64,000 nt of DNA from an uncultured Colwellia sp. (GCA_913057925.1 CAJXPG010000002.1:5387-69386), one strand, 5' to 3'; shown: positions 5,108 through 19,227, numbered from the stretch's first letter. Notes: generated by a model from the sequence alone, not told the origin. Program-made: numbers and translations.

Positions 5108-5788
5108 TTAAAACAGTTCAACATCACCACTAACCTCTTTCTTGTATATTTTATTGCTATAATCACTTTCTCGTTTGATGATCGTATCATTGTGCAAGTT
5201 ATCTAACCGTTTGATAAAAGCGCGACCACTACCAGGTTCGAATATCACTTTTCTTGGGTAAATATCACCAATGTCACTACTTTCAATAATGATTTCTTCT
5301 TGCTCTAAATAAGCTAGAGCAAAATCAATATTTTTTTGTCCTACATCAGACATTTGGTTAAGCACCTTAGCACCACCAAAAAGCTTAGCTCTTAAATTAA
5401 CTTTCCTACCACCGCACCTTAAAATACAGTTAATAAGGTGTTCCATAGCAAAGTTACCATAGCGTGTTGCATCTGCAGTCTTCTCTCGGCTTCCCCAATT
5501 TACTTCATGTGCGTCTTTATTGGTGATCGGTAACATAAAATGGTTCATGCCACCGACATTACTTCTCTCATCCCAAATACATGCAGAAATACATGAGCCT
5601 AATGTTGTTGCAATAGCAACATTTTGTGTAGTCATATAAAATTCACCAGGTAATATTTTAGCAACCACCATATCCCTCTGTTTATCCCAATAGTGGTTAA
5701 CTTGCACAAACTCTGGCTGGCATTGGGTTAAATATTTTGATAATTCTGGGTGATTATTTCTTAACACAAAATTTCCTTTTGAAAGCAA
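5108..5788 (-). CDS. cheD: Chemoreceptor glutamine deamidase CheD
   Basis: ILPGEFY, TTLGSCISAC, GGMNHFMLP, KLFGGA motifs; TTG start uncertain. Confidence 0.93.
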   Translation of the reverse strand: MLSKGNFVLRNNHPELSKYLTQCQPEFVQVNHYWDKQRDMVVAKILPGEFYMTTQNVAIATTLGSCISACIWDERSNVGGMNHFMLPITNKDAHEVNWGSREKTADATRYGNFAMEHLINCILRCGGRKVNLRAKLFGGAKVLNQMSDVGQKNIDFALAYLEQEEIIIESSDIGDIYPRKVIFEPGSGRAFIKRLDNLHNDTIIKRESDYSNKIYKKEVSGDVELF

Positions 5789-5790
5789 AG

Positions 5791-6702
5791 CTAATAAGGC
5801 TTTCTAAAAATTGTTCTACCAACATTGCTAAAATACTGCTGATAATTCCCTAAATTTTCACTATGCCCTAAAAAGAGTAAACCTCCCGGGGTTAGCATTT
5901 CATAGTATCGAGCAAACAGCTCTTGTTGGGTTTTCTTATCGAAATAAATAATAACATTACGGCAAAAAATCACGTCAAATGGGCCTTTCATTGGCCATTC
6001 ATGAAGTAAATTCAATTGTTTAAAAGTTATCAGCTCCTTTAAATTATCATTAACCTTTACACTCTGACTGCTTTTGCCACAACCTTGAAAAAAGTAATCC
6101 TGTTTCACTTTTTGTGGTAGTTCTTCAATTCGCCCAATATCATAGATCCCAGCCTTACCTTTTGCTAAAACATCGCTATCTATATCTGTTGCTAATATTT
6201 TCATATCCCATTGAGATGATTCAGCTTTCATAGTATTCAATAAAGTAATGGCTATACTATATGGCTCTTCACCTGTTGAACTAGCCGAAGACCATATCCT
6301 TAAACGCTTCTTACCATTTGCTAAAACTTTTTTATTCTCAATAATCCTAGGCAACTCTTCTTTACTCAAGAAGTCAAAATGATGATTTTCACGAAAAAAG
6401 CTTGTTAAGTTTGTGGTTATGGCATTAATAAAGAAATCTTTTTCATGCTCGGGTTGATCCTTAAGTAACTGGCAATAAGCAGAAAATGATTTCAGCTTCC
6501 TTTCTCGAATGATGCGTGTTAAACGGCGGTATAACATTTCACGTTTACTGTCATTCAGTACGATACCTGTATTGTCATAAACAAACTGACAAATAAACTT
6601 AAAATCCTTTTCTGTGAGTCGCATCGCATTTTCCCTTTGTGCGTTACGGCTTTGATGACCTCGCATATCATTTGCACCTCCTTTTAGCTCAGTCATCAAC
6701 AC
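5791..6702 (-). CDS. cheR: Chemotaxis methyltransferase CheR
   Basis: TTNLTSFFRE, RIWSSASSTGEEPYSIA, FDVIFCRNVIIYF, GHSE. Confidence 0.96.
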   Translation of the reverse strand: MLMTELKGGANDMRGHQSRNAQRENAMRLTEKDFKFICQFVYDNTGIVLNDSKREMLYRRLTRIIRERKLKSFSAYCQLLKDQPEHEKDFFINAITTNLTSFFRENHHFDFLSKEELPRIIENKKVLANGKKRLRIWSSASSTGEEPYSIAITLLNTMKAESSQWDMKILATDIDSDVLAKGKAGIYDIGRIEELPQKVKQDYFFQGCGKSSQSVKVNDNLKELITFKQLNLLHEWPMKGPFDVIFCRNVIIYFDKKTQQELFARYYEMLTPGGLLFLGHSENLGNYQQYFSNVGRTIFRKPY

Positions 6703-6750
6703 AGTCTCCTAATTAATTTAAACACACTATTCCTTTATTCTAATCAGGGG

Positions 6751-9700
6751 TTAAAACTCTTCCCATTCTTGATCTACCAGCGTACTCGGACGTTTAGTGC
6801 CGCGAACAGGTTTAGGCGTAACCGCAGGGCTAAAGTTTGACGAATTTTTCGCGGGTGCTTGTCTTGGCGCCGAGCGATTAGGACGCTGTACAGCAACAGC
6901 TTGCTCAACATTTTCACCATTATTGAAAAAGGCAACTTGATCTAGCAATGACTGAGATTGTTCTTCCATCGACTTACTCGACGCAGCGGCTTCCTCAACC
7001 AAAGCAGCATTTTGTTGCGTCATTTCATCCATTTGACTTACGGCTGCACTCACCTCTCCTATTCCCGCAGATTGTTCTTTACCTGCACTGTCAATATCAC
7101 CAATCATCTTACTAACATCTTCAATGGCGGTAACTAAGTCGCTAAAGGTTTGCCCGGTTTCATCTACTAACTTAGTGCCTTGTCCAACCGCTTCAACACT
7201 GTCATTTATTAAACCTTTAATTTCTTTAGCAGCACCTGCTGATCGTTGAGCTAAATTTCTCACTTCTGCTGCAACAACGGCAAAGCCTCGACCTTGCTCG
7301 CCAGCTCGTGCTGCTTCAACCGCAGCATTGAGTGCAAGTAGATTAGTTTGGAAAGCAATTTCATCGATAACACTAATAATATCGGCAATTTTCTTGCTCG
7401 ATTTATTGATATCACTCATTGCGGTAATAGCATTCCTAACCACAGCACCACCATTACTGGCTTTATCCATAACCGAGTTAGATAATTTACTGGCTTCTGT
7501 GGTGTTTTCAGCGTTTTGTTGTACTGTGCTCGTTAACTCTTCCATAGCTGACGCTGTTTCTTCTAAGCTAGATGCTTGAGACTCGGTGCGATGACTTAGC
7601 TCATTGTTACCCGATGCTATTTCTTTTGCAGAATCGAAAACATTGGTTGAAGCATTACGAATTTCTTCAACCATGTTACTTAAATTATCAATAGAGCCAT
7701 TCATTGCATTCGCTAGTGCAAGGAATTCACCACCGTAATCATTTCTCATGCTTTGTGTTAAGTCACCATCGGCGAGCGCTTGGGCAATATTAATGGCATC
7801 ATTTATGGGTGCTACAATCGAGTCCATTAGGCTATTAATATTATTGCCTAATTCTTTCATAAAGCCTTGGTATTCTTCTGTTTCTATGCGGCTATCTAAC
7901 TTACCTGAAATGGCGTCGGTAATTAAATTATCTATTTGTGATTGAGCATCTCTTTCTTCAGTTAAATCAACCCATTGCACCGCCGTACCAACATGATTAC
8001 CCTCTTCGTCCCTCAGTGCTATGGCAATTAACTGAAATGTTAAGCCAACTACAGATATCTCTGTGGTGTAAGGAAGATTGTCAGGATTACCTAACAGATT
8101 CTGTTGATGTGCAGGGTTTTTATGGAAGGTATCAAAATTAGTCCCTACCATGGTATCGACACTAAACGAAGGTAACGCTGTGCGTAGTTTTGCCTCTCTA
8201 CGGCGTAACATGGTTTGTACTGCTGGGTTGGCATAAACTATATTACCTTGAGTATCAGCCATCATAAGATTGGTTGTCATTCCTTCTACCGCTGAAGTTA
8301 ATCGGCCTACTTCCACCGACTTCTCCCTTGCTGCGGTAACATCTTGCCATTCTAAGGCGTTACCAATATATCCACCGCTAGCATCCAAAATAGCGGTAAC
8401 ATTTAGTTCAAACGATAAATGCTTAATTTGGATATCGGTCTTATAAGGTAAGTTATTTGGGTCACTTAGTAACTTACGTTGATGGGCTGGGTTTTTATGG
8501 AAACTGTCAATGTTGGTGCCAATAATCACATCAGGGTCAGCTTTAAATCCTGGCCAATTCTCAGCAAAGGTGGCTTCATGCTCTTTCAATAAGGCCAGCG
8601 TCGAAGCATTGGCATAGGTAATATTAAAGTCTCTATCGATCATAATATTAGCGGTAGCTGATTGGTCAATAGCACCTTGTAGTTGAGCTGATTTGTTTTC
8701 TTGTGCACGCGCTTCAGTAACATCTTGCCACTCTAATGCGTTACCTATGTATTCGCCGTTAGCGTCTAAAATTGCGGTAACGTTGAGTTCAAACGATAAA
8801 TGTTTAATTTGGATATCGGTCTTATAAGGTAAATTATTTGGGTCATCGAGTAATTTACGTTGATGGGCTGGGTTTTTATGGAAGCTGTCAATGTTAGTAC
8901 CAATAATCACTTCAGGTTCGGCTTTAAAACCAGGCCAATTATCAGCAAATGTTGCTTCGTGTTCCTTCAGCAGTGCCAAAGTTGCAGCATTAGCATAAGT
9001 AATATTAAAATCTCTATCGATCATGATATTAGCTGTGCCAGATTGATCTATCGCTCCTTGTAGTTGAGCTGATTTGTTTTCTTGTGCTCGCACTTCAGTA
9101 ACATCTTGCCACTCTAGTGCATTCCCAATGTATTCGCCTTGAGAATCCAACGTAGCACTGACATTTAATTCAAAGGTTAAATGGGCAATTTGAATATCGG
9201 TTTTGTATGGCAGATTGTTTTGGTCGGCAAGTAACATGCGTTGATGTGCCGGGTTTTTATGAAAACTATCTATGTTAGATGACAGTAATGCTGCTTTGTC
9301 GGCTTTAAAGCCTGGCCATTTTTGTACAAAGGTCTCTTCATGTTGCTCTAACAATTTGAGCGTTGCATCGTTTGCATAAGTTACATTGAAATCTCTATCA
9401 ATCATCATAAATGCTGTCGATGATTGATCTAGTGCGCCTTGTAATTGTATTGCCAAATCATCCTGTTTCTTATTTTGAACCTTACTCTTATCCATGTTCT
9501 TTCCTTTTGAGGACTGGGATGGTGCGACATTATTTGCTGCATCAATCATTGTTGTTGATAAGGTTTGATAAACTGCTACCCAAGCTTTTTTAACAGGTGC
9601 TGTAAACTCTTTACCTAAGCCTTGTGCCAATGTTTTAAGTAACGCGGCACCAACTGTATCGTAATGCTCTGGCTTGGTACCATACTCTACATGCTTGGCG

Positions 9701-9933
9701 CCGAGCTTTTGAACCGCTGGAATTAACTTATCTGGGTTATCAAGTAATTTGACAGCTGTATCAAGCATAGCCATCAATTTTTTACCTTGTTCTGTAACAT
9801 CTTCAGGAAATAGGGCTTTTAGTGAAGGGTCCATTTCAAACAAGGTGGTATAAAATATGTCTGCTGCTTGAGGTGCAATTGGTAACACTTTTTCCCAGCT
9901 TTGTTGCACTAAACTTATCTGTTTTGGTGTCAT
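6751..9933 (-). CDS. aer2: Soluble Aer2-type chemoreceptor: globin + 4 PAS-heme + HAMP region + MCP signalling domain, C-terminal EWEEF pentapeptide
   Basis: N-terminal 3/3 globin ([19 protein letters not shown]); four PAS repeats with FHKNPAHQ and (E/Q)W-D motifs; MCP signature; no transmembrane segment; position between cheW and cheR. Confidence 0.85.
7960..9483 (-). repeat. Four tandem intragenic PAS repeats, 381-bp period (outer boundaries approximate)
   Basis: ATCTTGCCA(C/T)TCTA anchor recurs at 8341, 8722 and 9103; middle two units nearly identical in protein, fourth more divergent. Confidence 0.9.
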
Positions 9934-10024
9934 AAGTTAATTTCCTGTGTTGTTATTTTTGAACTGTTTGGTATTTTCTTTCTTGCTTTATATCGTTATA
10001 TTTAAATGAAACCTGCGCTGTTTG

Positions 10025-10579
10025 TTATGCAGTTGAAATGCCAGTTACAGAGTTCGTTTGCATATCTTGAGCTTTAATATCGATATCAAGGTTACCTTCA
10101 CTATTGCCCTCACTGTTATTGCTGATGCAATATAAATCGTCTTCATTAAGTAATGAATCGCTATCTAAAAGAATGATTAGTTTATCTTCTACCGATGCTA
10201 AACCTTTTAAAAAACAGCTATCTATATTATTACCAAAGGCAGGTGCTTGACGTATGGACTTTTCGGAAAACTTATAGACTTCTGAAACCGCATCTACCAC
10301 TATACCGACAACCATGGTGCGAGATTGAGATTGTTGGCGTAATATGATGGTTACTGTTTGCTCATCATAATCGAGCGCCGAGTGGCCAAAGCGCATCCGT
10401 AAGTCAATGATTGGAATGATCACTCCCCTGAGGTTTATGACACCTTTTATATAGCCTGGTTTATTAGGCAACTCGGTTACTGAGCTCCATACACGAATTT
10501 CTTGTACGCATAAAATATCTACGCCATATTCTTCACCTTGAAGTAAGAAAGTAAGATATTCTTGTTCTGTTTCAGCCAT
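10025..10579 (-). CDS. cheW: CheW coupling protein (second copy)
   Basis: YLTFLL, YGVDILCVQEIR, GVINLRGVIIPIIDLR, GIVVDAVSEV. Confidence 0.95.
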   Translation of the reverse strand: MAETEQEYLTFLLQGEEYGVDILCVQEIRVWSSVTELPNKPGYIKGVINLRGVIIPIIDLRMRFGHSALDYDEQTVTIILRQQSQSRTMVVGIVVDAVSEVYKFSEKSIRQAPAFGNNIDSCFLKGLASVEDKLIILLDSDSLLNEDDLYCISNNSEGNSEGNLDIDIKAQDMQTNSVTGISTA

Positions 10580-10635
10580 GTTAATTTCCTATTAACCATT
10601 ACTCTTGTTGGGTGTTACTCAAGATAATTTAATCA

Positions 10636-11169
10636 CTAACTATTCATTGGGTGCTGTTCAACTTGCTGTAAATGAGCAACATTAAGAATGGTGACAACTT
10701 TTTGTTCACTATTTATTAGACCATCTATAAATTGTTGACTTACACAACCGCCAAATGCTGGCGCAGGTTTAATATCAACACTTTCAACGTTCAAAACATC
10801 AGATACCGCATCGACAACGAAACCTATAGTGCGTGATTTATCATCATTCTGATAAGTTAAAACTATTACTACCGTTGTTTCTAGGTAGCTTGCTTCACCT
10901 ATTCCAAACTTTAATCGTAAGTCAACAATAGGAACTATCACACCACGCATATTAATTACACCTTTAATATAGCCAGGAGCATTAGGTATCTTAGTCGGTG
11001 TTTCCCAGCTTCTGATCTCTTCTACACATAAGATATCAACAGCATATTGTTCATCGGCAAGTAGGAATGTTAAATATTGATCGCCACTGGTTATAAAGTC
11101 TACACCTTCAATGGAGTGCTCACCTTCAACAGGAATATCTTGAGCCATTGCTTGAATATTCATATACAA
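10636..11169 (-). CDS. cheW: CheW coupling protein (first copy)
   Basis: YLTFLL, GVINMRGVIVPIVDLR, GFVVDAVSDV. Confidence 0.95.
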   Translation of the reverse strand: MYMNIQAMAQDIPVEGEHSIEGVDFITSGDQYLTFLLADEQYAVDILCVEEIRSWETPTKIPNAPGYIKGVINMRGVIVPIVDLRLKFGIGEASYLETTVVIVLTYQNDDKSRTIGFVVDAVSDVLNVESVDIKPAPAFGGCVSQQFIDGLINSEQKVVTILNVAHLQQVEQHPMNS

Positions 11170-13265
11170 ACCTCTGCTTTGACACTGTCTCCACCATTTT
11201 TAAATTTTTGAGCATACTGTGCTTTTTCAAGTGCCATACTTATCATTCCTGGAATATCTAAAATCATAGCAACAGAGCCATCGCCTAAAATCGTTGCCCC
11301 TGAAATCCCTGCAACCTGTTGATAATTATCTTTTAAGCTTTTAATGACTACTTGTTGCTGAGCAAGTAAATCATCTACCATCAAGCCAACCTTTTGCCCG
11401 TCAGCTTCAACCACAACAAGTAACGCGTTATCTATTTCAATGCATTCTGTCTCTAAATCAAACAATTGGTAGATAGGAAGTACCGGAACATTGTCGTCTC
11501 TCAATCGATACAGAACCATGTCGCCTGAAACTCGGTTTATTAATTTATTATCTATTTGAAGGGACTCTACGATAGCAATAAGCGGGATTATGTAAGTTTC
11601 ACTGCCAACTTTGACTAACTGACCATCTAGTATGGCAAGAGTTAATGGCAGGTTTACCTTAAAAGTACTTCCTTTACCCAAAGTAGATTCAACTTGGATT
11701 CTTCCACCAAGTGCTTGAATATTTCGTTTAACCACATCCATACCGACACCACGACCAGAGATATCGGTAATTTCTGCTGCGGTAGAGAAACCAGGTTCAA
11801 ATAACAAATCATAAACTTGGCTATCTGTTAAAGTTGCATTAGCGTCAATTAAACCTTTATCAACAGCTTTAGCTAGTACAGATTCACGATTAATACCTGC
11901 ACCATCATCATTTATTTCAATAACAATATTGCCACCTTGATGATATGCGTCTAGCGAAATGGTGCCCTTCTCTGGTTTCCCTTGTGCAACCCTTATATCA
12001 CTCGCTTCAATTCCATGATCCGCCGCATTACGAACTAAATGTACTAAGGGATCACCAATTTGCTCCATAACAGTTTTATCAAGCTCGGTTTGTTCTCCTT
12101 TGATAACTAGTTCCATTGCTTTGCCGGTTTTTACAGCTAAATCATGAACTAGTCGTGGAAAGCGACTAAAGGCAAAACTGATAGGTAGCATACGAATGCG
12201 CATCACACTTTCTTGTAGTTCTTTGGTATTTTGTAGTAACTGCTCTAACCCGCTATTAAGGCGCTCTACTTTTTCCATGACGAAGTCATTGCCTAACTCT
12301 GACAACATAGACTGAGTAATAACTAATTCACCCACTAAATTAATTAAGCTATCCACTTTATCTACGCCGACACGAATAGAGCCAACTTCAGTTTTCGCTT
12401 TAGTTTTGCTAACTGTTGCTTTTTCATCAGCACTTTTAGGATTAGCTGCTGCTATCTGACTTTCTTGAATTTGAGGCGTCGTTTCATCGATGGCAGGAGC
12501 TGTTGTATTTTCTTGTTGGAAGGTAGGCTCATTTTCAGTTTTTTCTTGTGGCAGCTTATTATCGATAGGAGTGAGTTCGAGTAAACACTCATCTTCAACC
12601 CACTCAAAAATTTCTTTAACCTCTTCTTCGTCAACTTCTCCAATCAACGTTAATTGCCAGCTTAAATAAAGCTCTTGTGCATCAATGTCCATTAAAGCAG
12701 GAAGTTCATTGGTATTAGCGTGAATGGTTAAGCTGCCTAACTCTGCTAAAGCACTGAATAAAAACAGCGGATCATTACCTGTTTTTGCCAGACTATGCTC
12801 CGGAACAAACTTGATATTAAAACCCGTAGCTGATTCTGAGCCTACTTTATCAACACTAACATTTTCATCAGAAGTGAGTTGTTCGTTACCTAATGTTTGC
12901 GCTAAACGGCTAGAGGTTTGAGCTACTTTTTCAGTATCATAATCCGATTCATCTCTAGCGGCTTCAATGAGCAGTCGCATACAGTCAACTGACTCAAGTA
13001 ATATTTCAGTATCAGCGTTGGTAACCTCTCTTCGACCATCTCTCATTTCATCTAGCAGGGTTTCGACTAAATGAGTAAAATCAGTAACACTGTCAAAACC
13101 AAAGGTTCCAGCCCCACCCTTGATTGAATGGGCCGCCCTAAAAATAGAGTGGATAGTTTCATTGTCGCCCGGCTGTAAATTTAATAGTCCGGACTCCATT
13201 AACTCAAGCCCTTCAAAACTTTCTTCTAAAAAGCTTGGAATAAATTGTGATAAATCAACACTCAT
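11160..13265 (-). CDS. cheA: Chemotaxis histidine kinase CheA
   Basis: Hpt FRAAHSIKGGAG, SIRVGVDKVD, HLVRNAADHGIE, SGRGVGMDVV, C-terminal CheW-like domain. Confidence 0.97.
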   Translation of the reverse strand: MSVDLSQFIPSFLEESFEGLELMESGLLNLQPGDNETIHSIFRAAHSIKGGAGTFGFDSVTDFTHLVETLLDEMRDGRREVTNADTEILLESVDCMRLLIEAARDESDYDTEKVAQTSSRLAQTLGNEQLTSDENVSVDKVGSESATGFNIKFVPEHSLAKTGNDPLFLFSALAELGSLTIHANTNELPALMDIDAQELYLSWQLTLIGEVDEEEVKEIFEWVEDECLLELTPIDNKLPQEKTENEPTFQQENTTAPAIDETTPQIQESQIAAANPKSADEKATVSKTKAKTEVGSIRVGVDKVDSLINLVGELVITQSMLSELGNDFVMEKVERLNSGLEQLLQNTKELQESVMRIRMLPISFAFSRFPRLVHDLAVKTGKAMELVIKGEQTELDKTVMEQIGDPLVHLVRNAADHGIEASDIRVAQGKPEKGTISLDAYHQGGNIVIEINDDGAGINRESVLAKAVDKGLIDANATLTDSQVYDLLFEPGFSTAAEITDISGRGVGMDVVKRNIQALGGRIQVESTLGKGSTFKVNLPLTLAILDGQLVKVGSETYIIPLIAIVESLQIDNKLINRVSGDMVLYRLRDDNVPVLPIYQLFDLETECIEIDNALLVVVEADGQKVGLMVDDLLAQQQVVIKSLKDNYQQVAGISGATILGDGSVAMILDIPGMISMALEKAQYAQKFKNGGDSVKAEVCI

Positions 13266-13388
13266 AACTGATCACCTACTTTTCCTTGTTAAAACCGGGG
13301 ACGTTATCACAACAAAGCACTTTTAGAATAAGTGCTTTAGACAAGTATATTGCTTATGTTTTCAGATAATTATATTAAGAACAGTAAA

Positions 13389-13751
13389 TTATTTTACTAC
13401 GCGTTTTATCGTTGCCAAGAGCTTCTCGGGATTAAACGGCTTAACCAACCAACCTGTAGCGCCAGCAGCCTTGCCTCGCATTTTCATATCGGTTGAACTC
13501 TCAGTCGTTAACATTAATATAGGAGTGAATTTAAAAGCAGCTAACTTTCTCAGCTCGGTACATAGGCTGATACCATCCATATTTGGCATGTTTACATCTG
13601 ATATCACTAAATCGAATCCATCCATTTGCGCTTTGGACAAACCTTCTCGACCATCCTTTGCCTCAACAGTCTGGTAACCTGCACTTTTTAGGGTAAAACT
13701 TACCATGTCCCTTATTGAGTTTGAGTCATCAACAACTAACACTTTAGTCAT
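13389..13751 (-). CDS. cheY: CheY-like single-domain response regulator
   Basis: 120 aa REC: VVDD, SDVNMP, MLTTE, VKPF; directly upstream of cheA. Confidence 0.92.
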   Translation of the reverse strand: MTKVLVVDDSNSIRDMVSFTLKSAGYQTVEAKDGREGLSKAQMDGFDLVISDVNMPNMDGISLCTELRKLAAFKFTPILMLTTESSTDMKMRGKAAGATGWLVKPFNPEKLLATIKRVVK

Positions 13752-13816
13752 ACTGGTTTCCTCGTCTTTAATTCACAGTCTTCGCGTAAAAGTTATTATT
13801 TTAATTTACTGAAGTA

Positions 13817-14092
13817 TCAATCCATTAAGTATTGCAATAAAATCACATCGCTAATGCCTAACTGCTGAATACTTTCCTTTAAAACGGTGGATTTTGATTG
13901 CCACTTAATATCTTTACCTTGGGCAATAATGTAGGTGACCACGGCTAAGATAAATTGCACACCAATGGTATCAATGCGAACTAAATCACCATCGTCGATA
14001 GTAATAATATCGTGGTCATCAATTAGTGGGAGAATTTGTGCTTGATATTCGTCAACTTGAGCAATAGTTAAATCGCTGGGGAACTTGATCAT
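13817..14092 (-). CDS. Small STAS-domain protein (VCA1097-like position)
   Basis: 91 aa; LTI..., IDTIGVQFI STAS-like motif; first gene of che cluster. Confidence 0.8.
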   Translation of the reverse strand: MIKFPSDLTIAQVDEYQAQILPLIDDHDIITIDDGDLVRIDTIGVQFILAVVTYIIAQGKDIKWQSKSTVLKESIQQLGISDVILLQYLMD

Positions 14093-14371: not shown

Positions 14372-14572
14372 TTAACGTGGTAAATAAAACACCATAATTA
14401 AGCAAAATAAAGCGATTAACCAAAAAGCTTTAACAAAAAATTTAACTTTCAAATTTCGATCATTGGGGTGTTTTTCTGGTAAATCCATTCCGCAATGTTT
14501 GCACTGTTGGATATCTCCATCACTGATATTTTCAGTTTGACAATATAAACATGTCTTCTTAATTTGGCTCAT
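14372..14572 (-). CDS. Small CxxC...CxxC zinc-ribbon membrane protein, DnrP-like (66 aa)
   Basis: CLYC...CKHC, C-terminal TM ending YLPR; GAGG upstream of ATG 14572 (ORF track start 14593); follows norD as PA0526 does in P. aeruginosa. Confidence 0.65.
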   Translation of the reverse strand: MSQIKKTCLYCQTENISDGDIQQCKHCGMDLPEKHPNDRNLKVKFFVKAFWLIALFCLIMVFYLPR

Positions 14573-14602
14573 TATTGACCTCTCTAAAATCAATATCTTT
14601 TA

Positions 14603-16456
14603 TTATTGGGATGTTAATTGATGATATAACTGAGGAAGTCTCATCGGCAATTGATCTGGTCGCAATATTTGGGTAAAGCCATCATTACCAAACAAGTATG
14701 GCAAGTAATCTTGTGCATCAACATCTATTGTTATGCAAAAGGGTTTTATACCAAGACGTTTTGCCTCATTAATGGCCTGATGAGTGTCTTCAATGCCAAA
14801 GCGGCCTTCATAGTGATCAATATCGTTAGGCTTGCCATCAGTTAAGATAAGCAGAAGTTTATCCGCTGTTTTCTGTTCACTAATAACTTTAGTAGCTTGA
14901 CGAATTGCCGCCCCCATTCTGGTGTAAAAGCCAGGCGTTATCGCTTGAATTCTGCCTCTGACATGATCATTATAATTTTCATTGAAATTTTTCAGCATGG
15001 TGAAGCGAATATTGCTGCGCTTAACCGATGAAAAACCATACATAGCAAAGTTATCACCAACAGACTGCAACGCTTCGCCAAATAACAGCAAACTGTTTTG
15101 TACGACGTCAATAACGCGATTATCATTATCTATGTGAGAATCTGTCGACATTGACAGATCCGCTAATAGCAAACATGACAGATCGCGGTTATTACCTCGG
15201 TATGACTGAAATAAGCCTTTTTCTGCCGTCGCAGCAGTTTTACTTTCTATATGATAATCAAGCCAAGCATTGAGATCTAATTCTTCACCTTGCGGTTGAG
15301 CTTTAAGCCAATATCGAACACTTCGCAATTGTTCAAATTGCGCTTGGATCATTCTTGCAGTTTTTTGTAGCTTTACTGGCAATTTTGCCGGCACTGCATC
15401 ACGAGGTAACATCGGCTGCAACAAGCAGCGATCATCTTGTAATGTTTGGCTTTTATAATCCCACTCAGGCAGTTTGATACCTTCACCGAGTGGAATATCA
15501 TCTTCAGAAGCTGACGGTAAGTCCAAATCAATTTTTATCTGTCCGCTTTTTTGTTGCTCTTGTTGCTTGGTTAACGTGATCTTGTCTAGATCATCAATAG
15601 TGCTTTGATAATCTTCTTCATCCTCATCACTATCATCAGTGCCTCGGTCCATTTTGGAAAATTCACTCCATGAGAACAAACTTTCTAATCTAAATATCAT
15701 CATGCCGCTTCTGCCGTCGGGTGAATCGACCCGCTCTGCTTTTTTACGAGCAGAATTAGCTTTTTTAGTTATCTTCTTCTCATTGTCTTGTCCATTTTCT
15801 TCTAACAGTTTATCTTCATCAAATTCAGCGCCAAGCACATCGTCACTGCTTGCCGAAGGGTAAAGCCACAAATATACCGCTTTTGGGGCAAAATTTACTT
15901 TGGGAAATTCATTGACTGAGCCCGGTGTTAGAATTGCTTGCCTAATAGCGCGTTCCATTGAGCGCTCTGCCTGAGGCATTTTATCCATGGATGCCCTCAT
16001 CTCAACAAAAGCCTTTGCTAAGCGACGATATCGATTTTGTAATGCAGGAAATTTTTCCAAGACTTCAACCACTAGCGCTTGATTATCCTTTGCCCAATGG
16101 CGAAAGCTACCACTGTGGTGTGCAGCGAGTACTGCCAGCCAAATGTAAAGGTCGTAATTGAGGTTTGTTTCATTAAAAACTGCTAGAGACTCTGGTAATC
16201 GCAGGCTTTCTTCATCTTGCCAAGCAAGACTCACTAACTGATTGTCTCCTGAAACTTTTTGTAAAAAGCTTTTACGTGTAAGATATTCTCTGCCAGTTGC
16301 GGATTCGACACGCTTTACCGCATCGCCACCTAACGCTCTAAACACCATAGCTACAGATTTACTTACCTGATCAAAATTAACGCGAGCTTCATCAAATTCA
16401 GGATTTGCTTTGCGAGTTATATATTTGTGCCAAAGTCCACCAACCCACTCTTCCAT
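14603..16456 (-). CDS. norD: Nitric oxide reductase activation protein NorD (VWA domain)
   Basis: MEEWVG start, YPEWDY-like LPEWDY, MIDAS DLSMS, GFYTRMGAAIR, LTDGKPND. Confidence 0.92.
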   Translation of the reverse strand: MEEWVGGLWHKYITRKANPEFDEARVNFDQVSKSVAMVFRALGGDAVKRVESATGREYLTRKSFLQKVSGDNQLVSLAWQDEESLRLPESLAVFNETNLNYDLYIWLAVLAAHHSGSFRHWAKDNQALVVEVLEKFPALQNRYRRLAKAFVEMRASMDKMPQAERSMERAIRQAILTPGSVNEFPKVNFAPKAVYLWLYPSASSDDVLGAEFDEDKLLEENGQDNEKKITKKANSARKKAERVDSPDGRSGMMIFRLESLFSWSEFSKMDRGTDDSDEDEEDYQSTIDDLDKITLTKQQEQQKSGQIKIDLDLPSASEDDIPLGEGIKLPEWDYKSQTLQDDRCLLQPMLPRDAVPAKLPVKLQKTARMIQAQFEQLRSVRYWLKAQPQGEELDLNAWLDYHIESKTAATAEKGLFQSYRGNNRDLSCLLLADLSMSTDSHIDNDNRVIDVVQNSLLLFGEALQSVGDNFAMYGFSSVKRSNIRFTMLKNFNENYNDHVRGRIQAITPGFYTRMGAAIRQATKVISEQKTADKLLLILTDGKPNDIDHYEGRFGIEDTHQAINEAKRLGIKPFCITIDVDAQDYLPYLFGNDGFTQILRPDQLPMRLPQLYHQLTSQ

Positions 16457-16519
16457 AACAATATTACATTCGTCTAAATTAATAATGATATGATTGTATC
16501 AATAAAAATTAACCATGCT

Positions 16520-16533
16520 GTGATTTGGGTCAA
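16520..16533 (-). promoter_or_regulatory. FNR/DNR-type box upstream of norD
   Basis: Minus strand TTGAC-CCAA-ATCAC; TACAAT -10 at 16498-16493 gives class II (about -41.5) geometry. Confidence 0.6.
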
Positions 16534-16540
16534 CAGAAGT

Positions 16541-16969
16541 TTACTTTGGCTTAGCAAAATTCAATATTGCTTCACTGGCAAACCTTCTTTTACATTCATT
16601 GACAGACTTTTTAACGAGAACACGGCGAAATGACTCATCTAAATTCAACCATTTATTTTTCATTTCGGGATGTGTACCAAGCTCTTCAAAAGAATCTATA
16701 AGCAACTGCTTTCTAACATCAAAAAGCGCTTCAGGTATAAACATGTGATTGTGGGCAATGGGGGGCGCTTTTCCAATATATAGATTTTCACCGCCAAGCA
16801 CTTTTTGCATAAAGTCTACTTGTTGATCTTCGATATGCTGTTGAGGAATGTCTAAAAAATAAAGCTTTAACCATGGATGTTTATAGACTTTATCGTAAAA
16901 AACTTTGTTGATGGCAATAAGACTTTCACGACCGCCGATACGGTTAAACTCATCGAGTTTATTCATCAA
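16541..16969 (-). CDS. Group I (N-type) truncated hemoglobin
   Basis: IGG, FY (B9-B10), F (CD1), QQVDF (Gln E11), LGG...Y EF loop, His F8 in IAHNHM. Confidence 0.88.
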   Translation of the reverse strand: MMNKLDEFNRIGGRESLIAINKVFYDKVYKHPWLKLYFLDIPQQHIEDQQVDFMQKVLGGENLYIGKAPPIAHNHMFIPEALFDVRKQLLIDSFEELGTHPEMKNKWLNLDESFRRVLVKKSVNECKRRFASEAILNFAKPK

Positions 16970-17036
16970 TCACATTTACCCTAAGGTTACTTATCTTCTG
17001 TGTTAAATAAACTATAGAGTAAAATGTAGAAAGTTA

Positions 17037-17477
17037 TTAAAAAATAGGCAGTTTTTTTGCCATTGCTCGAGATAAATTGAACATGCCAATCAGAACAAAC
17101 CCTGCATGTAGCGTAACAAAGTAAATCAAACCGACCATAATCGATACTTGTTGTTGCTCCGATAAATAGATAACAGCAAGCGGTACAATAGCCAGCAATA
17201 CCCCCGCTAGTATCGACAACTGAACACTTCGAATTAGGTGAATCTTACCAATACCCAAATTTTTCAGTTTCACTTTATTTTCACCCTGTGGGGATTGGAT
17301 ACTTTGAGTACTATTTTCAGAACTGTTTTGAGTACTATTTTTTTGCTGATTAAGTTGACGTAAGTAATAAACTAATACCAAGAAAAATACTCCCGGTAGC
17401 AATAGCAAGTTGGCAAGGTAAAGCGATTGACAAATAATGGCAAACCTTCCACTTGCGCTAGGACTTCTATTAATCAT
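17037..17477 (-). CDS. Uncharacterised membrane protein (about 3 TM) within nor-accessory cluster
   Basis: LYLANLLLLPG N-terminal helix and two further hydrophobic helices; co-oriented between norF-like gene and trHb. Confidence 0.6.
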   Translation of the reverse strand: MINRSPSASGRFAIICQSLYLANLLLLPGVFFLVLVYYLRQLNQQKNSTQNSSENSTQSIQSPQGENKVKLKNLGIGKIHLIRSVQLSILAGVLLAIVPLAVIYLSEQQQVSIMVGLIYFVTLHAGFVLIGMFNLSRAMAKKLPIF

Positions 17478-17536
17478 TTGTATCTCCTTGTCTTTAGATT
17501 GCTCACTTTACTTAGTTACTTAATGCCTATTGCTTA

Positions 17537-17791
17537 TTAATTTAGATAAATCACACTAATAATTAACGGTAACATTACGATATAACTTAATAATAGCAAA
17601 CGCCAAAACCTTGGTGCTGACTTCAATTCCATAAACACATCAACAATTTGCTGTCCTTTGATTACAACAATAATTAATGCACAAATTATATAAGCACTTC
17701 TCTCACTGATAATGATTGGGAAATACATTGTGACAAGTGTTAACACAACCAGCACTAGCCAACTAGTTGTTGCTAAACGAAAAGCTAGCAT
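17537..17791 (-). CDS. Cytochrome c oxidase subunit IV-like small membrane protein (NorF/NirP-like)
   Basis: 84 aa, 3 hydrophobic segments, IKGQQIVDVFMELKSAP motif; follows norE. Confidence 0.75.
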   Translation of the reverse strand: MLAFRLATTSWLVLVVLTLVTMYFPIIISERSAYIICALIIVVIKGQQIVDVFMELKSAPRFWRLLLLSYIVMLPLIISVIYLN

Positions 17792-17846
17792 TATTTTGCC
17801 CTCCTAATACATTGAGATAAATGTCATCAACTTAAACAACATGAAT

Positions 17847-18431
17847 TTAAATGACATAGATAAGTGGAAACAAAATAATCCATAGCAAGTCAACCATATG
17901 CCAGTAACTTGCTCCCGCTTCAAAACCAGAGAGTGATTTCCCCTGATATTTACCCTGCCACGCTGCTTTTGCGATAAAGGTTAAAATCACCATACCCAGT
18001 AATACATGCATTAAATGAAAAGCGGTTATCAAAAAATATAAAGTAAAAAAGGTATTAGTTTCTATGGTAATACCTTGTTCAAATAATGAAAAATATTCCC
18101 AAATTTTCACCGAAATATAGATTAATGCGAAGCCTTTAGCCCCGAGTAATAGCAAAGCAGCTTTATTAGCGGCTTGTTTGTGTATTGCTGCCAGTGATAA
18201 CGAGACAAAATAGCTGCTTGTTATTAGCGCTATTGTATTGATAAGCCCTGATAGTTGATGAAGCTGTGCTTTACCCTGAGAAAACATTTCAAGGTTTTGC
18301 TGTTCACTGATTGCAAAACCAATAAAGAAAATGGCAAAAACCGTTAATTCAGCCAAAATAAAAAACCACATGGCTAAATCCCCAGGTAGTTTTTTATTAC
18401 AATGCTCTAATGTTATTGATGAACTGGACAT
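17847..18431 (-). CDS. norE: Cytochrome c oxidase subunit III-like protein NorE/NirO
   Basis: PGDLAMWFFILAE, NTIALITSS, FHLMHV, YWHMVDLLW; directly after norQ. Confidence 0.85.
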   Translation of the reverse strand: MSSSSITLEHCNKKLPGDLAMWFFILAELTVFAIFFIGFAISEQQNLEMFSQGKAQLHQLSGLINTIALITSSYFVSLSLAAIHKQAANKAALLLLGAKGFALIYISVKIWEYFSLFEQGITIETNTFFTLYFLITAFHLMHVLLGMVILTFIAKAAWQGKYQGKSLSGFEAGASYWHMVDLLWIILFPLIYVI

Positions 18432-18444
18432 TAGCCGCTAAGCG

Positions 18445-19227
18445 TTAGTCAAAATAAATCTTGGCAACATCCATCAACGCTTTTACGGTTTGTGGATCAT
18501 CAGATAAAGGCTCTGCTAAACAGCAACGACACACTTCTAATGGTTCCATACCTGAAGTGATCATTCTGGCTGCGTAAATCAGCAAACGCGTAGAAGCAAC
18601 CTCATCTAAATCGTTTTGCTCTAAACGACGTAAAGCACCAGCAAGCTCAACCAATTTAAAAGCTAGATGTGGCTCGGCGTTGGCTTCTTTAATTAAAATT
18701 TGTTGTTCAAGCTCTGCATCTGGGTATTCAAAACGTAATGCAACAAAACGTTGTCTAGTACTCGCTTTCATACCCTTTAATAAATTTTGATAACCTGGGT
18801 TATAAGAGACCACCAACATAAAGCCAGGGGCTGCTTCAAGTAATTCACCGGTGCGCTCTAGAGGTAATATGCGTCGATCATCTGCAAGAGGATGTAACAC
18901 AACAGTGGTATCTTTTCTCGCTTCAACAACTTCATCTAAATAACAAATTCCTCCTTCACGAACTGCTCGGGTTAAAGGACCGTCTTGCCAATAAGTACCG
19001 TCAGGTCCAATTAGGTGACGACCTACTAAATCGGCAGCCGTTAAATCATCATGACAAGCAACCGTATAAAGTGGCTTGTTAAGTTGCTCAGCCATATGAG
19101 CAACAAAACGTGTTTTACCACAACCCGTTGGCCCTTTAATCAAAACAGGTAACTGATGTTCAAAGGCATAATTAAATAACGAAACTTCATTCTTTTGTTC
19201 TTGGTAAAATAGCTTGTCGGTTGTCAT
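18445..19227 (-). CDS. norQ: CbbQ/NirQ/NorQ MoxR-type AAA+ ATPase
   Basis: GPTGCGKT, VACHDDLTAADLVGR, YLDEVVEARKDTTVVLHPLADDRR, STRLL. Confidence 0.93.
   Translation of the reverse strand: MTTDKLFYQEQKNEVSLFNYAFEHQLPVLIKGPTGCGKTRFVAHMAEQLNKPLYTVACHDDLTAADLVGRHLIGPDGTYWQDGPLTRAVREGGICYLDEVVEARKDTTVVLHPLADDRRILPLERTGELLEAAPGFMLVVSYNPGYQNLLKGMKASTRQRFVALRFEYPDAELEQQILIKEANAEPHLAFKLVELAGALRRLEQNDLDEVASTRLLIYAARMITSGMEPLEVCRCCLAEPLSDDPQTVKALMDVAKIYFD

Follow-up and report, generated by a model that had tools for sequence, protein, structure and literature searches.

Nitric oxide reductase accessory genes and a truncated haemoglobin gene at a locus without norCB in an uncultured Colwellia sp.

The 64,000-nucleotide stretch of an uncultured Colwellia sp. 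analysed here (GCA_913057925.1, CAJXPG010000002.1:5387-69386; hereafter the window) carries on its minus strand, between positions 14372 and 19227, seven close-packed open reading frames (ORFs) which by ORF calls and family matches follow one another in the order norQ-norE-norF-X146-trHb-norD-Znr73 (Table 1). The locus looks like the accessory operon of a cytochrome c-dependent nitric oxide (NO) reductase (cNOR) without its enzyme, with a truncated haemoglobin (trHb) gene in the place of norC-norB, and one has to ask what has become of NO reduction in this organism. An earlier reading made from the DNA alone (the sequence-only reading) had given this order, with the last gene named dnrP-like, and exactly the gaps of 67 bp between X146 and trHb and of 84 bp between trHb and norD, and had left two explanations, namely that (i) norCB moved elsewhere; or (ii) NO removal was handed to the trHb, with the NorQ/NorD pair serving a new client. 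From our point of view, at a probability of roughly 85%, the window holds the accessory half of an ordinary cNOR system that is split over two chromosomal loci, and the trHb gene is a resident of the site and not a substitute for the enzyme.

norCB at a second locus of the same genome

A search of the whole assembly for the COX1 family returned three matches, on contigs C56, C99 and C161. None of them lies in the 64-kb window, which holds no gene of this family or any other haem-copper oxidase gene and no norCB, as the sequence-only reading had stated. The gene on C161 encodes a NorB of 463 aa that scores 837 bits against Pseudomonas aeruginosa NorB (3o0r_B) over its full length, and it is directly preceded by a norC whose product scores 240 bits against 3o0r_C; NCBIfam has no specific models for NorB, NorC or NorD and the scans gave distant oxidase matches, and identity was settled by the PDB sequences. 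The motifs HLWVEG, GTGHH and AAHGHM align identically with 3o0r_B and the ligands of the non-haem iron (FeB) and of the haem are kept, which in the P. aeruginosa enzyme we take to be His207, Glu211, His258, His259, His347 and His349. Of the two explanations it was thus the former that held, in the sense that norC-norB is intact on C161, at a locus that is conserved in the species as well as in three further Colwellia genomes with the same split. As a cNOR system with NorQ/NorD chaperones it departs from its family only in that enzyme and accessory genes are not contiguous, norCB being on a contig other than that of the window. The genome-wide search that the sequence-only reading had proposed turned up norB, norC and a nirS cluster; nosZ was found in addition, and a search for nirK was negative. 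With norCB, the nirS cluster and nosZ the genome is that of a complete denitrifier.

Contig C161 ends exactly at the ATG of norC, where a Nextera adapter is fused to it (C161 9748-9795; on C109 the adapter occupies 1-44), and untrimmed adapter was found at contig ends in 191 of the 260 contigs. As such, the first five codons (MYKRQ) of the listed norC ORF are artefactual, and the break between C109 and C161 is caused by the untrimmed adapter. Upstream of norC, reads from three runs run on into sequence that is missing from the assembly, and the 30 nt that they show there were not found in the genome's own assembly. C109 begins in the cupredoxin-norC spacer, 94 bp past the cupredoxin stop, and carries the upstream flank of the norCB locus with the genes for a Fer4_5-type polyferredoxin membrane protein (315 aa) and a cupredoxin of 111 aa (C109 139-1531). 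An exact look-up of the 146-aa NorC matched 12 metagenome contigs, eight of which were read, and those long enough give the order Fer4_5 membrane protein, cupredoxin, norC, norB, terminator, peptidase S10 and BipA.

Several properties tie this second locus to the genome of the window. In four metagenomes the depths of the two nor loci were 14 versus 15, 7.7 versus 7-11, 6-9 versus 7-9 and 4.6 versus 4.8, the GC content of C161 is 38.7% with 38.9% for the genome, and the genes flanking norCB on C161 are 88-91% identical to syntenic genes in Colwellia relatives.

The X146-trHb junction is spanned unbroken by Logan contigs from four independent metagenome runs belonging to four studies, and is therefore not an assembly error. 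All seven ORFs are intact, and the ratios of nonsynonymous to synonymous substitution rates (dN/dS) of the window genes against three relatives range from 0.02 to 0.13, with about 0.12 for X146 and about 0.02 (at saturated dS) for norQ and norD, which points to strong purifying selection on the latter two. The NorQ translation has a Walker A (GPTGCGKT) and a Walker B motif (YLDEV) and is a MoxR-class AAA+ protein with the CbbQ/NirQ/NorQ C-terminal domain, while NorD combines the size (~600 aa), the C-terminal VWA domain and the metal ion-dependent adhesion site (MIDAS) expected of its family. Identity to Colwellia sp. 12G3 and 75C3 is 95-96% for norQ, and that of norD to the split-operon Colwellia genomes described below is 89-90%. 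X146 matched no Pfam or NCBIfam family above cut-off, and the Pfam zinc-ribbon match of Znr73 is weak.

Table 1. Genes, regulator boxes and predicted promoter at the window locus (positions counted from the first letter of the window)
Feature	Position	Strand	Description
norQ	18445..19227	-	MoxR-type AAA+ ATPase, 260 aa; AAA_5 4.5e-37, CbbQ_C 3.7e-28
norE	17847..18431	-	cytochrome oxidase subunit III-like membrane protein, 194 aa; COX3 3.5e-14
norF	17537..17791	-	COX4_pro-like small membrane protein, 84 aa; COX4_pro 2.6e-11
X146	17037..17477	-	conserved membrane protein, no family assigned
trHb	16541..16966 (alternative start 16969)	-	group 1 (N-type) truncated haemoglobin, 141 aa counted from ATG; Bac_globin 4.7e-07
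norD	14603..16456	-	617 aa; C-terminal VWA 1.1e-07, residues 447-580; MIDAS motif DLSMS
Znr73	14372..14593	-	small CxxC...CxxC zinc-ribbon protein, one transmembrane segment; starts 9 bp past norD stop
FNR/Dnr-type box TTGATCTTCATCAA	19308..19321		perfect; centred ~87 nt upstream of norQ ATG
Dnr-like box TTGACCCAAATCAC	16520..16533		2 mismatches; centred 70 nt upstream of norD ATG; TACAAT at 16498-16493
Predicted trHb promoter	17011..17040	-	TTAATA, 18 nt spacer, TATAGT; -10 at 17016-17011; promoter scan

The two loci among relatives and their promoter units

NorD orthologues were found in 31 of 151 sampled genomes of the GTDB family, in which the nor genes usually follow the order Fer4_5, cupredoxin, norQ, norE, norF, X146, norC, norB, a small membrane protein of ~85 aa, norD and Znr73. 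The positions of norE and norF are conserved across the family, X146 is kept in 13 of 16 related nor clusters having norQ and lies between norF and norC in unsplit relatives, and Znr73 is directly 3' of norD in all 20 related loci examined. Compared with the unsplit relatives, the trHb of the window does stand where norCB should be, as the sequence-only reading had it, but the replacement that this seemed to imply did not hold up, for in three genomes of one other genus (g9) the cluster is unsplit and reads norQEF-X146-norCB-smallTM-trHb-norD-Znr73 (smallTM, small transmembrane protein gene). Globin and norCB thus coexist there, the globin being already beside norB.

The arrangement of the window recurs at the same chromosomal site, with permease, YciI and YciB genes on one side and STAS, CheY and CheA genes on the other, in Colwellia sp. 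12G3, Colwellia sp. 75C3 and the metagenome-assembled genome (MAG) DT_22. In all three, norB is intact and belongs to the same Fer4_5/cupredoxin...PepS10-BipA locus, which has a perfect regulator box. The contigs that show this two-locus layout, from two isolates and one MAG, are 290-720 kb long; as currently assembled, none of the genomes examined has both loci on one contig. The comparison with relatives that the sequence-only reading had suggested consequently reduces the case, through an intact norCB elsewhere in the genome and the same split at the same site in three further Colwellia genomes, to a simple operon split.

Where norB is absent, the accessory operon is decayed or absent as well. 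Colwellia psychrerythraea GAB14E is without norB and keeps trHb flanked by fragments of norE, X146 and Znr73, in C. marinimaniae only the globin gene is left, the MAG DT_17 has a norQ fragment beside the globin and Fer4_5 fragments at the other locus, and in TT2012 norB is broken and trHb frameshifted. Intact norQ and norD, on the other side, accompany an intact norB in every case examined. In the globin tree, split-operon and globin-only genomes share a single clade and the latter branch inside it, which argues that the globin-only states were derived by deletion. In four other family genomes (G075, G092, G117 and G014), norD-Znr73 stands alone with a Dnr-like box and with no norQ or norCB within 9 kb, indicating that the cluster has been split at the norD unit repeatedly.

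The regulator boxes suggest how such a split could come about. The box before norQ, TTGATCTTCATCAA, is the only perfect match to TTGAT-N4-ATCAA in the window, and a further perfect box stands ~83 nt upstream of norC at the second locus, so that at sequence level the transcription units have the upstream boxes of a Dnr/NNR (FNR-type) regulon. Among related loci, a perfect box precedes norQ in 21 of 23, and a TTGAT....ATCAC box is found 65-84 nt before norD in 23 of 24, including those with norCB upstream. Over 25 nor loci three box classes, before norQ, norC and norD, are conserved, and the window box before norD belongs to the third. The idea that this box is the scar of an old norCBD promoter was rejected, since it precedes norD in relatives that still have norCB with its own box; judged by its motif, it is norD's own promoter. 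By the same kind of evidence, the nor cluster of the family is made up of three Dnr-box units (norQEF-X146, norCB and norD-Znr73) even where these are contiguous, which would make a split mechanically easy.

We therefore picture two loci under one control. Locus A, elsewhere in the genome, comprises the Fer4_5 membrane protein, the cupredoxin and norC-norB, the norCB unit keeping its own perfect box, and locus B, in the window, comprises the units norQ-norE-norF-X146 and norD-Znr73 on either side of the globin gene. A Dnr/NNR-type regulator would turn on both loci under low oxygen and NO, and NorQ (MoxR AAA+) and NorD (VWA) would act in trans, inserting the non-haem FeB into NorB, as is suggested by work on Paracoccus (PMC9976466, PMC13036017) and by the co-occurrence and co-loss of both genes with norB.

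Some members of the family cluster deserve a remark of their own. The Fer4_5-cupredoxin pair precedes the nor cluster in many family members and stayed with norCB in the split genomes; it may supply electrons specifically to cNOR. Elsewhere in this genome, at C38 24019-25809, a further Fer4_5-like gene is paired with a NorE-like one (43% identical). X146, the ~85-aa protein encoded in the norB-norD gap and the zinc-ribbon protein whose gene follows norD are conserved small membrane proteins of unknown function in the family's nor cluster. The ~85-aa gene is missing at both nor loci of the window species, and a paralogue (38-40% identical) lies at C56:7731-7982.

The truncated haemoglobin beside norD

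Searched against PDB group 1 trHbs, the window globin reached an E-value of 5e-10, and of 9e-14 against 3aq5 with a profile of eight orthologues. Its AlphaFold2 model (predicted local distance difference test score 70) gave target-normalised template modelling (TM) scores of 0.74-0.78 to the best-matching group 1 structures, and in Foldseek the top 23 matches were all group 1 trHbs (best E 8e-05, target-normalised TM 0.62-0.78); NCBI likewise names the Colwellia orthologues group 1 truncated haemoglobin. By sequence, modelled fold and database naming the globin is hence a group 1 trHb.

The key residues are Tyr24 (B10), Ile45 (E7), Gln49 (E11), His72 (F8) and Arg85 (G8), in an alignment to Tetrahymena trHbN (3aq5) that is free of gaps from B10 to G8. 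His72, Tyr24, Gln49 and the motifs GG11-12 and GG58-59 are each present in 32-34 of 34 homologues, Tyr24 and Gln49 being invariant. In group 1 trHbs, the G8 position lines the distal pocket with a small apolar residue (Val, Ile or Leu). Here, however, Arg85 aligns with the Ile at G8 of 3aq5, and Arg is found at this position in 33 of the 34 homologues, which come from Colwellia, Kangiella, Nitrospinaceae, Bdellovibrionota, Acidobacteriota and others. This near-invariant Arg marks a distinct subfamily, and a conserved C-terminal tail of 25 residues with Cys125 and Arg128-Phe/Tyr129 is present in addition. The subfamily, which extends over several phyla, also has a His at F8+2 and Trp106, and no solved structure shows these features. 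As far as the alignments go, the window globin thus belongs to a subfamily of group 1 trHbs that is uncharacterised. A literature search for truncated haemoglobins in nor clusters found nothing relevant.

The predicted trHb promoter has its first hexamer overlapping the X146 stop codon, and the motif CTATAGT, ~45 nt before trHb, is conserved in Colwellia irrespective of the presence of nor genes at the locus; no Dnr box precedes trHb in Colwellia. From this conserved motif, the lack of a Dnr box and the retention of the gene after nor loss, we read trHb in Colwellia as a resident gene with a predicted promoter of its own, and neither as a replacement of cNOR nor as a required assembly factor. 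As to its role, we lean slightly towards a function separate from cNOR assembly, either O2-dependent NO dioxygenation or a buffering of NO/O2 at the oxic-anoxic transition; NO dioxygenation is plausible in so far as the pocket residues, and these only, are alike. A different and rather unlikely role would be that the Arg-G8 subfamily has repeatedly been recruited beside norD as a partner of NO reductase at the oxic-anoxic switch, with a chemistry that may differ from that of HbN, the distal Arg possibly holding nitrogen oxide anions like nitrite, peroxynitrite or nitrate.

In Colwellia without nor genes, the globin gene is followed immediately, and in the same orientation, by an operon with STAS, CheY, CheA and CheW genes and a globin-coupled (Aer2-like) receptor. 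The synteny of globin and chemosensory operon is conserved across the genus, the operon region of the window being 6751-14092. In the MAG Colwellia ALOHA_DT_126 a globin orthologue stands between divergent molybdopterin oxidoreductase genes and a convergent hybrid histidine kinase gene (region 5505-13008); the oxidoreductase has a fused 4Fe-4S/membrane subunit, and the N-terminus of the kinase looks MHYT-like by eye. Around the distant homologues in Kangiella, Nitrospinaceae and others the neighbours are heterogeneous and gave no functional clue.

Other explanations and known systems

The bolder of the two explanations in the sequence-only reading, that cNOR has been lost, that the trHb removes NO as a dioxygenase and that NorQ/NorD mature another client, draws on the missing norCB in the window, on the globin holding its place relative to unsplit relatives and on a Tyr B10, apolar E7, Gln E11 pocket like that of Mycobacterium tuberculosis HbN. 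It did not survive, and we consider it extremely improbable, given an intact norCB with all ligand motifs at equal depth in the same genome, relatives in which the globin occurs together with norCB, the dN/dS of norQ and norD, and the decay of the accessory genes that always accompanies the loss of norB. No more credit can be given to the idea that C161 is a binning or assembly contaminant and that the genome is truly without the enzyme. The assembly is indeed fragmented (260 contigs, 93% complete, 1.3% contamination), and norC sits at a contig end with the stretch upstream of it missing, but the two loci match in depth in four runs, C161 matches the genome in GC content, the upstream flank is present in this assembly on C109, which starts within the cupredoxin-norC spacer, and the identical layout is found on long contigs of two isolates and one MAG. 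Only marginally better placed, and still very improbable, is a decaying relic, with FeB being inserted without chaperones as in the Thermus cNOR: cNORs without norQD exist (PMC12067857) and many stages of decay are seen at this site among relatives, yet all seven ORFs are intact, their dN/dS is low, a perfect Dnr box is kept, and intact norQ and norD always come with an intact norB in the cases examined.

Improbable, though less so than the foregoing, is a globin that acts as a true accessory factor of cNOR, for instance by buffering haem or NO/O2 and so protecting or priming NorB while FeB is inserted; it would have been recruited to the side of norD and have stayed with the assembly genes when norCB moved. 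Such a function would fit the place of trHb immediately before norD, which is seen in two genera and different chromosomal surroundings, the MAG DT_18, which has trHb-norD-Znr73 without norQEF, and the trHb of g9, which has no Colwellia-type -10 motif and seems to share a transcript with norCB and the small transmembrane protein gene upstream of it. It is, however, hard to reconcile with the 16 examined family clusters that have norCB beside norD, none of which contains the globin and 14 of which carry only a small membrane-protein ORF in the norB-norD gap of 420-730 bp. The globin has also outlasted complete nor loss intact on at least three occasions (GAB14E, C. marinimaniae and the g9 genome G063), in Colwellia it is preceded by a conserved promoter element of its own and not by a Dnr box, and no nor genes lie within 10 kb of its homologues in Kangiella, Nitrospinaceae and others.

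The split cNOR system with a resident globin thus remains our preferred explanation, and the following points have to be held against it. Since the globin recurs immediately before norD in two genera, its functional link with cNOR may be closer than assumed here, and the Arg at G8 departs from the characterised NO-dioxygenase trHbNs, which makes the proposed globin activity uncertain. None of the RNA runs contained the window stretch, the case for promoter use and co-regulation is built on sequence motifs, and this analysis did not locate the Dnr regulator. Lastly, when the genes around both loci were compared with 23 related nor loci, no shared flanks were found outside Colwellia; either norCB moved out or the accessory modules moved in around a resident globin.

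Overall, the window represents a simple, conserved operon split of low to moderate interest, with modest novelties in the modular layout with three promoters, the family-specific ORFs (X146, Znr73, the small membrane protein and the Fer4_5-cupredoxin pair) and the globin subfamily. The current understanding of denitrification is changed neither by the split nor by the subfamily. Genome annotators should not conclude from a nor accessory operon lacking norCB that NO reduction was lost. In this lineage, enzyme and chaperones would be coupled only via shared Dnr-type promoters and appear to be gained and lost together. The cultured isolates Colwellia sp. 12G3 and 75C3 provide a natural test bed for NorQ and NorD acting in trans.

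Among known systems, the closest is the nirQOP/norCBD cluster of P. aeruginosa, whose NO reductase structure is 3O0R. Counterparts of NirQ/NorQ, NirO/NorE, NirP/NorF, NorC, NorB and NorD are all present in the Colwellia genome, as are a small ORF after norD and promoters of the Dnr-box type, and the similarity of NorB (837 bits to 3o0r_B) is high. In contrast to P. aeruginosa, norCB here stands apart at a second locus, next to the genes for a Fer4_5 protein and a cupredoxin, norD is preceded by a Dnr-like box of its own instead of being the third gene of norCBD, and X146, trHb and Znr73 are interleaved as extra ORFs. With M. tuberculosis HbN and other group 1 trHbs (1IDR, 3AQ5, 8UGZ) the globin model shares the 2-on-2 fold (target-normalised TM 0.71-0.78) as well as Tyr B10, an apolar E7, Gln E11, His F8 and the Gly-Gly motifs. 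It differs from them by Arg at G8 (Ile in 3AQ5), by the 25-residue tail with Cys125 and by having no pre-A motif; HbN itself we take to have Val at G8 next to its Tyr B10/apolar E7/Gln E11 pocket.

In Paracoccus denitrificans, NorQ/NorD is the chaperone that inserts FeB into NorB (PMC9976466, PMC13036017). The Colwellia proteins resemble those of norCBQDEF in that NorQ is a MoxR AAA+ protein with a CbbQ_C tail and NorD has VWA and MIDAS, and their role may well be the same. Whereas the Paracoccus genes form a single operon, the chaperone genes of the window would act in trans on an enzyme encoded elsewhere. The cNOR of Thermus thermophilus, in which the chaperones norQD are missing altogether (PMC12067857), is alike in that the enzyme genes are uncoupled from chaperone genes within the cluster. 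It represents the converse case, since in Colwellia both halves are found in one genome and are lost together.

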